Virus record (IMG/VR): IMGVR_UViG_2744054914_000003
Source: a virus
Taxonomy: Duplodnaviria > Heunggongvirae > Uroviricota > Caudoviricetes
Strand: one strand, 5' to 3'
DNA: 42,128 bases
The position numbers were made by a program, and so were the translations under genes. Below, in pieces: positions 40,397 through 42,128 of the stretch. Each line of letters opens with the position of its first letter. The stretch's first letter is position 1. Under the pieces are notes generated by a model. That model was not told the DNA's origin, made no database searches, and was given only the letters and a program-made list of their open reading frames with translations.

Positions 40397-40657
40397 ATGC
40401 TTATTGGCTATGTCCGCGTATCAACAAATGACCAGAATACAGAATTGCAGCGTAACGCGCTGGAGTGCGCAGGATGTGAACTGATTTTTGAAGATAAAAT
40501 CAGCGGAACAAAATCAGCCAGACCGGGATTGAAAAAACTGCTCAGAACGCTATCAGAAGGAGATACGCTGGTTGTCTGGAAGCTGGACAGACTGGGGCGC
40601 AGTGTGCGGCATCTTGTCGTGCTGGTGGAGGAGTTGCGCGAACAAGGTGTTAATTTT
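40397..40657 (+). pseudogene. DNA invertase (Gin/Pin/Hin-family serine recombinase), truncated after about residue 87
   Basis: N-terminal 87 aa (MLIGYVRVSTNDQNT...LDRLGRS...REQGVNF) closely resemble Pin/Gin as recalled; similarity ends at about 40658 where AT-rich DNA begins; ORF runs on unrelated to 40792; C-terminal HTH domain absent. Confidence 0.7.
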
Positions 40658-40678
40658 AGTAGTTATGTTATTACAGGT

Positions 40679-40694
40679 GGGGGATTTCTCCCCC
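40679..40694. other. GC hairpin at the junction between invertase remnant and AT-rich cargo
   Basis: GGGGGA-TTTC-TCCCCC, 6-bp perfect stem, about 20 bp beyond the breakpoint. Confidence 0.35.
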
Positions 40695-40715
40695 TTATGC
40701 AGATTTTCTCGTTAA

Positions 40716-41561
40716 CTATTGGCGAAGTGGCCATATTTTTCTGTTTTTTAAAAAACTATCTTCAACTATATAACTGCAACAATGTTCACTAAGGCCATAA
40801 AAACTAATTATTCCATATTTATGAGAAGCTATATCAGACAGTTCTGCTAATACTGTGGCAAGCCAACGAGCGATGCTAAGAGAATAGAATCTTCCCCACT
40901 TTTGAACAATGGTATTTTGTCCAGTACGGATGGAGGCTGATATAAGGTCTTGCATAATGTTGGTACTTTCATTCATATACATGACCGTTGTATACGGTGA
41001 AAGAGTGGCATTGATAAACCTAGCATTTTCTTCAACACGTCTTTGTTCAACTGTATAATAATAATGTTTTTCAAGGATACTCTCGGCTACTTCTCCCCAC
41101 CATTTATTAATAGGTTCATTATTGGTTAAATTGGGGCTGCTTAATGAGGAGAAATTTGCGTAACGTCCCCGTCGGGCATCAGCAAAGGAATCTAAACATT
41201 CAAGTATTTTGTAGGTAATTTTATGTGTAGGACGTGAATATCTCAGAGATAGTTGCATTTTTTTAGAAATACTATCAACCTCGTTGGTTAATTCAATGAG
41301 CTTGTGTCCAAATTTTCTTACAATATTCTCGTCAGGCATTTTTCCTTTGTGTTCAATGGCATAGTGTGCAACAAGTATTAGTTTAGCAAGTCTCTCAAAA
41401 CCTACAGAAAGCCCAAAAAATGCTGTGTAATATTCACCTATTTTGTCTGCATAATTGGCTTTACCTATGGCTGTTGCCCCAGAACCAATGAGCTGTGTTA
41501 CTAAAGATGCTTCTCGGCCCAGAGCGTGCCATGCTGGAATATCCCAGGGATTTTTATTCAC
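40716..41561 (-). CDS. Hypothetical protein encoded in AT-rich cargo beyond the invertase
   Basis: 281-aa ORF with GTG start (forward CAC at 41559-41561); AT-rich; no motif recognised; does not match my recollection of McrA. Confidence 0.5.
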   Translation of the reverse strand: MNKNPWDIPAWHALGREASLVTQLIGSGATAIGKANYADKIGEYYTAFFGLSVGFERLAKLILVAHYAIEHKGKMPDENIVRKFGHKLIELTNEVDSISKKMQLSLRYSRPTHKITYKILECLDSFADARRGRYANFSSLSSPNLTNNEPINKWWGEVAESILEKHYYYTVEQRRVEENARFINATLSPYTTVMYMNESTNIMQDLISASIRTGQNTIVQKWGRFYSLSIARWLATVLAELSDIASHKYGIISFYGLSEHCCSYIVEDSFLKNRKIWPLRQ

Positions 41562-41689
41562 TTTATTATTTTCCTTTGCTCATAAATTTAAATTGTTTGA
41601 GTATCTCATAAAATATAAGGAGGTGGTTAAGGTTGTTGATCGCATATAATAGCTATTGAAAGTCAAGAACTCGGTTTTATGTTCTACCA

Positions 41690-41728
41690 CTAATTAATAT
41701 ATTGTGAGTCTGACAATATATTAATTAG
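41690..41728. promoter_or_regulatory. Perfect 16-bp inverted repeat with 7-bp spacer (putative operator)
   Basis: CTAATTAATATATTGT-GAGTCTG-ACAATATATTAATTAG, about 130 bp upstream of the 281-aa gene start. Confidence 0.55.
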
Positions 41729-41861
41729 TATGATCAAACCAGCCATCAACTGATTCCTTGTATCTTTCAGAGTCTCCAGAACAAAAGCCTTAACGAATTC
41801 CTTATTTGTGAGTGCATTACAAAAAGCCATTGTTGCAGGGAACGAGTATAAAACTCGCCAG

Positions 41862-42128
41862 CTACTGGAGCAGGCTACCTGATTGTCGATCGATTCCTGC
41901 GTCCATATAGTCGATGGTCTTCTGGAGCTCTTCGATTAGGGCAACAGCTTTTGCTCGAGAAATACATATTAGTTGATCCGGAAATTCTTGTAAGGGCCAG
42001 TTTGGTATACAGGCCATGTTATCAGTGAAGGATGCAGACAAGTAAACTTCATTGGTAACCAGAGAATAGCTTACCTCAAAATTGGTGAGTTCCGGCAAAC
42101 TGCTAACGTTTGACTCTTTTCTGCGCAT
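41862..42128 (-). CDS. Hypothetical small protein
   Basis: 88-aa ORF, ATG at window end (forward CAT at 42126-42128), AT-rich; upstream region lies outside the window. Confidence 0.4.
   Translation of the reverse strand: MRRKESNVSSLPELTNFEVSYSLVTNEVYLSASFTDNMACIPNWPLQEFPDQLICISRAKAVALIEELQKTIDYMDAGIDRQSGSLLQ

Follow-up and report, generated by a model that had tools for sequence, protein, structure and literature searches.

The analysed window, a stretch of 42,128 nucleotides given on one strand, corresponds over its whole length to a SEN34-like myovirus prophage of Escherichia coli with the integrase at its left end. Its integration site is the 3' end of yfhL, beside yfhH; an intact yfhL is annotated at the left junction, and a truncated start of a ferredoxin gene is left at the right junction (L001:9940-10000, just past the right end of the window). 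The last 1.7 kb of the window was present in 44 of 5,426 E. coli genomes and also in 3 deposited phages, with 100% identity in 4 complete E. coli genomes. On the minus strand, this region consists of the 88-aa gene (42128-41862), 132 nt, a perfect palindrome, a 127-nt leader, and the 281-aa gene (41561-40716).

The 88-aa gene (41862-42128, minus strand, phrog_17793) belongs to the prophage backbone and is the last gene before attR; it also holds the last position before the attachment site in Salmonella phage SEN34. Its homologues were found in prophages of Escherichia, Salmonella, and Citrobacter only. RefSeq and most Salmonella and Citrobacter homologues have a length of 87-88 aa, and several database calls extend the reading frame to 113-145 aa via starts past the window end. 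No family was assigned to the protein by Pfam, NCBIfam, or PADLOC, and PHROGs gave only phrog_17793, of unknown function. The AF2 model (pLDDT 73.6) comprises three strands and a long helix. Its comparison with the PDB yielded nothing significant (best E = 0.047, the rest with E ~1), and weak PUR/Whirly-like matches with E ~1 were not used.

The 281-aa cargo gene (40716-41561, minus strand, WP_001039127) encodes a member of an uncharacterised conserved family whose all-alpha fold appears HEPN-like. In Serratia, homologues occupy the P2 gpA-gpQ hotspot next to a PvuII restriction-modification system, and in Morganella they lie within a P2-like prophage, flanked by its tail-fibre assembly and sheath genes; others adjoin ogr (Citrobacter), hsdR and an integrase (Enterobacter), or umuDC (Klebsiella). 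These are typical defence or moron sites; the P2 defence hotspot has been described previously (PMC9122126). A conserved 3' hairpin, GCTCACAAC..GTTGTGAGC, was identified ~40 nt past the stop codon of the 281-aa homologues (L018:3880-3899, L021:3888-3907, and L014:3885-3908); Serratia and Klebsiella differ in it by a compensatory A:T to G:C change. In the window, this hairpin is missing, and GGGGGAGAAATCCCCC (40679-40694) is found in its place.

Homology of the window to the ETEC H10407-type prophages breaks at 40656/40657 and 41846/41847. The same backbone is integrated at this site in about 80 further E. coli genomes, ETEC H10407 among them; their invertase is of full length and their 88-aa gene is 97% identical, and a different gene of 215 aa replaces the segment in them. 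Since homology stops at 40656 and resumes at 41847, the region 40657-41846 represents a 1.19-kb replacement. This imported segment contains 59 nt of 3' flank, the 281-aa gene, its leader, the palindrome, and a remnant of a dinI-like gene. The first-pass annotation had placed the palindrome between two cargo genes; the 88-aa gene is conserved backbone, present in relatives lacking the imported segment, and so cannot be counted as cargo. Between the invertase and the 88-aa gene lies a variable cargo position, occupied in the H10407-type prophages (L087/L088:3230-4015) by the unrelated 215-aa hypothetical gene at 58 nt from the 88-aa gene.

A Gin/Pin-type DNA invertase gene (40397-40664, plus strand), which converges on the 281-aa gene, is 3'-truncated by the imported segment. 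It adjoins invertible tail-fibre genes. The segment has deprived it of its C-terminal half, and tail-fibre switching has probably ceased in this lineage. In the ETEC H10407-type relatives the invertase is full-length but frameshifted. Some copies of the lineage are decaying: in PEC411 (L089), a 342-nt CDS is annotated in place of the 846-nt 281-aa gene, with a 1-nt gap relative to the window, and strain 357900 (L090) has an IS3 element inside or beside the 88-aa gene.

Anatomy and variation of the palindrome

The palindrome occupies positions 41689-41729 and has no strand of its own: two perfect 17-bp arms enclose a 7-nt spacer, 41 bp in total. The gene-proximal arm, on the 281-aa side, lies at 41689-41705 and reads ACAATATATTAATTAGT on the minus strand. 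The gene-distal arm lies at 41713-41729; its outer 11 nt (41719-41729) read ACTAATTAATA on the minus strand, and its inner 6 nt are part of a TTGNNA (-35-like) region of the cassette described below. The spacer, GAGTCTG, is located at 41706-41712. A perfect 16-bp repeat with a 7-bp gap had been reported here, and it is real: CTAATTAATATATTGT at 41690-41705 is followed by its exact reverse complement at 41713-41728, and one extra A/T pair lengthens the arms to 17 bp. Its position, about 130 bp from each gene, was confirmed as well, the inner edge lying 127 nt upstream of the GTG start of the 281-aa gene (41561, minus strand) and the outer edge 132 nt past the 88-aa stop codon (41862).

Among perfect inverted repeats with a spacer of at most 12 nt, this one is the longest in the 42-kb window; the runner-up has arms of 10 bp. 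The longest arm measured 8-12 bp in Markov-1 simulations of the window (n = 60) and 8-15 bp in simulations of 42 kb at the local GC content of 38% (n = 60). An arm of 17 bp was never reached, which supports the earlier view that the palindrome is unlikely by chance. Folding predictions were evaluated against dinucleotide shuffles (z-scores of -5.3 to -7.8 overall): the predicted RNA hairpin has a dG of -18 to -20 kcal/mol on both strands (z of -5.3 to -6.1), and the predicted DNA hairpin has a dG of -12 kcal/mol (z about -7.7). The palindrome has the features expected of cruciform- or hairpin-forming DNA, namely arms of ~10 bp or more, a short spacer, and AT-rich composition.

The exact core of the palindrome was searched for in 2.9 M viral contigs (IMG/VR) and in one genome per species of 185,579 species; it was confined to this prophage lineage, apart from 2 unrelated AT-rich matches with different spacers. 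A search for further copies, recommended in the first-pass annotation, was thus carried out, and the palindrome proved to be single-copy: in the window, the flanking chromosome, and all fetched loci, other copies or half-sites were represented by chance-level matches only. No attC-, IS-, or REP-like architecture was identified at the palindrome. That it might terminate the imported segment or a mobile element was also considered and rejected, the segment breakpoints being at 40656/7 and 41846/7 instead.

Variation at the site was concentrated in its centre. The imported segment was compared in 13 copies with identities of at least 98%, and 56 variable columns were counted in 1,475 (0.036 per site). 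The 7-nt loop of these copies had 3 events vs. 0.25 expected (P ~0.002, calculated post hoc), and the 34 arm positions had 0 events vs. 1.2 expected (P = 0.29). A fourteenth copy, from strain 357900, carries a C-to-T change at 41714, in the inner arm. Across the 44 E. coli genomes, the only variable sites in the 121 nt from 41650 to 41770 were 41708, 41710, and 41712, all in the spacer, and 41714; all four thus fall within the central 9 nt (41706-41714), two of them sharing a haplotype and three resulting from C-to-T or G-to-A. This pattern therefore reveals arms without detectable constraint and a centre that is a mutational hotspot; given so little divergence (at least 98% identity), constraint on the arms may nevertheless exist. 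A loop exposed as a single strand in a hairpin or cruciform would produce central changes of this kind, which point to such a structure only indirectly.

The best sigma-70-like hexamer pair facing the 281-aa gene, TTAATA-17-TATATT (41696-41724, minus strand, 9/12, a consensus match only), is contained in the palindrome, whose symmetry repeats it on the plus strand at 41694-41722. A second promoter-like site, TCAACA-16-TATATT, was found in the leader of the 281-aa gene (41639-41612, minus strand). Promoter-like matches are common in AT-rich DNA, and 9 were found here vs. 5.1 +/- 2.2 expected. In the window, in the Klebsiella-type cassettes, and in loci L045 and L046, 119-140 nt separate the end of the -10 hexamer of the best sigma-70-like match from the start codon, again by consensus only.

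Other known signals were not found at the palindrome. A scan of 40600-42128 for intrinsic terminators gave 0 sites; the stem has 2 G:C pairs in 17, in place of the G+C-rich stem, some 5-12 bp long, of an intrinsic terminator, and is followed by no T/U run, the minus strand continuing with GGTAGAACATAAAACC and the plus strand with ATGATCAAACC. On these three grounds the palindrome was rejected as an intrinsic terminator. Rfam at permissive E-values returned only miRNA-precursor noise (19-22 bits vs. thresholds of 80-135). No LexA box (CTGT-N8-ACAG) was detected at the palindrome within 1 mismatch, and no CRP site (TGTGA-N6-TCACA) within 2 mismatches.

Ancestry of the two arms

Immediately beyond the distal arm lies the 3' half of a dinI-like gene (41730-41846, minus strand), a 5'-truncated, frameshifted pseudogene ~75% identical to DinI-like genes. 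Positions 41721-41839 have 73-79% identity to DinI-like genes from hundreds of E. coli prophages, and the alignment reveals a remnant with frame-breaking 1-nt deletions, the 5' half of which is gone. A 46-aa ORF extending over the palindrome (41690-41830) was rejected as a gene, since it is the dinI remnant read out of frame; an indel at 41826 within it differs between copies. A protein search with the frame-corrected remnant gave no matches.

Native dinI-like genes end in TGGTTTGTTCAC TAA TTAACACG, with the variants CATTAATTAATACG and CACTAATTAATACG, the latter being the tail of locus L115. In the window, the sequence at the dinI junction is TGGTTTGATCAT ACTAATTAATA TATTGT. The native tails CACTAATTAACAC, CATTAATTAATAC, or CACTAATTAATACG match the outer 9-11 nt of the distal arm, including the region of the stop codon; these 9-11 nt are therefore the stop-codon tail of a dinI-like gene. 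The native genes have a terminator, a GC-rich hairpin with a T-run, ~90 nt further downstream, which is missing in the window. In 120 additional dinI-like loci, only the usual tail and terminator were found. We failed to find a donor, that is, an intact dinI-like gene with the palindrome and the cassette, in E. coli genomes, phages, and plasmids.

On the other side, the leader or promoter region of the 281-aa gene (41562-41688, minus strand, 127 nt) can be aligned in part with the DNA upstream of homologous cassettes. Cassettes in different contexts (Klebsiella, Citrobacter, and metagenomes; 70-74% protein identity) have about 190 nt of this upstream DNA in common. An AT-rich element in these cassettes, e.g., ACATTGATAATACATTGGTGTATTAATTAAT, ends 120-128 nt before the start codon, at the same distance as the inner edge of the palindrome, and the proximal arm aligns with TGTATTAATTAAT upstream of the Klebsiella-type cassettes, also at the same distance (about -128). 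The element reads GCGGACATTGATAATACATTGGTGTATTAATTAATATGG in the Klebsiella type, GCGGAAATTGTTAATATATTGATGTATTAACACATATGG in L045, GGCATTGTCAGCGCACAGAGCTTAACCTAATC in Serratia, and GCGGATATTTTTTATATTTCGATGTGTTAATTTATGG in Citrobacter; the corresponding sequence of the window, TATTGTCAGACTCACAATATATTAATTAGTGG, has TTGNNA in common with all of them, TTGTCAG.C.CACA in common with Serratia, and TATTAATTA in common with Klebsiella. Arm homology based on 10-13 nt of AT-rich DNA is, however, fragile and should be read as a probable assignment.

Inverted repeats at the homologous spot are short or absent. The Klebsiella type (L021) has one of 7 bp (TAATACA/TGTATTA); in L045 it reaches 8-10 bp, and three substitutions relative to the Klebsiella type each add a pair. 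No inverted repeat was found there in Citrobacter L213, L046, or L014; the possibility that an inverted repeat is conserved in all homologous cassettes was therefore rejected. The 17-bp inverted repeat at the cassette 5' edge occurs in this lineage only. Since a short repeat recurs at the same spot in some relatives, its symmetry could be functional.

The same upstream DNA combines the AT-rich promoter-like element with a conserved GC-rich leader of ~120 nt, and a small GC hairpin, GTCCGC..N12..GCGGAC, was observed in several cassettes (L021:2810-3000, L031, L041, L045, and L213), with the pairing shifted in L041. The conserved upstream region of the cassettes could be a regulatory 5' UTR.

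Origin and possible roles of the palindrome

The reading that we tentatively prefer, with a probability of roughly 0.4, is that the palindrome is a quasi-palindrome derived from a recombination joint and since perfected, a hairpin-forming sequence that overlaps the probable cargo gene promoter and would also fold in read-through RNA. An old joint within the imported cargo segment would have brought the tail of a dinI-like gene against the 5' edge of the mobile 281-aa cassette. The palindrome itself is a chimera, with the outer 11 nt of the distal arm coming from the dinI tail, and the inner distal arm, the spacer, and the proximal arm coming from the cassette. A self-complementary decamer, ATTAATTAAT, or a one-off variant of it is present in both parent sequences, so that their juxtaposition could yield a long quasi-palindrome, as is proposed here. 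This quasi-palindrome would have been made perfect by DNA-level correction of the inverted repeat, with template switching between the arms. The perfect match includes a C:G pair, at which C is present in the dinI tail and A, in place of G, in the Klebsiella-type cassette. Such a pair within a 17/17 match is most simply explained by one arm having been corrected against the other; selection for a protein-binding site is a less likely cause of the perfect symmetry.

Template switching is documented to correct quasipalindromes of E. coli, and a preference for turning imperfect inverted repeats into perfect ones in this way has been deduced genome-wide in proteobacteria (PMC7202029, PMC5941160). 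The palindrome resembles these cases in that its relatives have imperfect repeats of 7-10 bp where a perfect 17 bp is found here, and in that the clustered substitutions of L045 each create a pair. It differs from them in being longer than most documented hotspots and in its record: no ancestral, imperfect intermediate was recovered from the E. coli genomes, the viral contigs, or the one-genome-per-species set. As neither an intermediate nor a donor was found, we infer template switching rather than observe it.

In the cell, this DNA would be prone to form a hairpin or cruciform, and the mutational hotspot may be located in the centre of the palindrome because the centre is unpaired in these structures. 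The inverted repeat of ColE1, known from the work of Lilley and of Panayotatos and Wells, is reportedly cruciform-forming and AT-rich, with 13-bp arms. The palindrome is similar to it in arm length, short loop, and AT-rich flanks, all in the range that extrudes under negative supercoiling; in contrast to ColE1, no role in replication or plasmid biology is implied. The location of the best sigma-70-like hexamers inside the palindrome makes a promoter role likely, and the palindrome would serve as the cargo gene promoter or overlap it. Read-through RNA from the 88-aa gene would fold into the hairpin of -18 to -20 kcal/mol.

The last of these properties could by itself be the relevant one. A hairpin acting at the RNA level, at or near the 3' end of read-through transcripts from upstream of the 88-aa gene, could terminate transcription weakly or with the help of a factor, stabilise the 3' end, or be a site for RNase III, and so insulate the 281-aa gene. 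The stable fold predicted on both strands, the co-orientation of the three minus-strand genes, and the presence of other small hairpins (GTCCGC..GCGGAC) at the 5' edge of homologous cassettes are consistent with this explanation, as is the position immediately behind the ancestral dinI-like stop codon, which is also where rho-independent terminators are found. The palindrome differs from such terminators in the absence of a U-tract on either strand, in having only 2 G:C pairs among 17, and in the negative terminator scan; moreover, native dinI-like genes use a different, GC-rich terminator ~90 nt further downstream, and no Rfam family was matched. We therefore regard a function confined to RNA as rather doubtful. 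The palindrome may instead be a neutral scar of recombination or replication without any effect on expression, persisting only through the youth of the lineage. Its chimeric and lineage-specific nature, the identity of at least 98% among all copies of the imported segment, arms that change at the background rate, and the decaying surroundings (the dinI pseudogene, the truncated invertase, and copies that are IS3-disrupted or frameshifted) all agree with such an origin. The site, however, coincides exactly with the promoter-like AT-rich element of homologous cassettes, so that a complete lack of effect on transcription is unlikely, and we consider the purely neutral explanation rather improbable.

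A different explanation had been put forward in the first-pass annotation: an operator at which a dimeric protein, possibly the 88-aa product, controls the 281-aa gene. In a broader form, the 88-aa protein, the 281-aa protein, or a host factor would repress or activate this gene. A perfect dyad over promoter-like hexamers upstream of a possibly toxic gene recalls the operators of lambda, 434, and P22 and the C-boxes of restriction-modification systems; the product encoded downstream has a HEPN-like, potentially toxic fold, the spacer varies and the outer arms do not, and some homologous cassettes also have short inverted repeats at this position. Phage and controller operators are, nevertheless, 14-22 bp long and usually imperfect, and a palindrome of 41 bp with perfect 17-bp half-sites goes far beyond them. 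Unlike these operators, it is present in a single copy, with no second one in the prophage, has no recognisable DNA-binding gene next to it or co-inherited with it, and does not accompany the regulated gene in related elements: it is missing from the other cassettes, which have inverted repeats of 0-10 bp and different sequence at this spot, Citrobacter L213 having none at all. One natural arm variant is known (strain 357900), and neither a LexA nor a CRP box is present.

The 88-aa protein in particular was rejected as the regulator. No comparable inverted repeat was found near the 88-aa gene in its relatives (H10407-type prophages, SEN34, and other homologues); since these keep the gene without the palindrome, the two are not co-inherited, and the protein belongs to no recognisable DNA-binding family and has no recognisable DNA-binding fold, which is also true of the 281-aa protein. 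The part of the earlier proposal that concerned an operator of the 88-aa protein is therefore not supported, and the RNA hairpin that it had mentioned as an alternative stays viable, with a stable fold and no U-tract. An operator bound by any dimeric protein appears unlikely to us.

The joint-derived quasi-palindrome that we favour belongs to an ordinary class, inverted repeats located at the mosaic boundaries of phages, and its history is unusually clear. As at the moron boundaries of temperate phages, autonomous cargo with its own AT-rich upstream region is inserted between backbone genes in a variable slot near the prophage end, and a stem-loop is located at the mosaic boundary. Unlike those boundaries, the stem-loop here is not a GC-rich, U-tailed terminator, and it is chimeric between two unrelated imported pieces, outside any conserved moron unit.

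A more far-reaching possibility, which we judge very improbable, is a structure-dependent switch in which a promoter-overlapping cruciform or hairpin controls a new single-gene HEPN-like defence cassette. If this were true, a shift in supercoiling or the appearance of single-stranded DNA upon infection or prophage induction would drive extrusion and turn on a toxic effector, and the shorter inverted repeats of related cassettes would be weaker versions of the same device.

The locus carries a caution: a striking perfect palindrome near a possibly toxic gene need not be an operator, as its arms may be traced to different ancestors. It also illustrates, in a natural setting, how an inverted repeat can be perfect in one lineage while its relatives have a short one or none, which bears on how palindromes originate and mutate. 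The more promising lead is the 281-aa family itself, which is widespread, unannotated, and HEPN-like and is located in known prophage defence hotspots.
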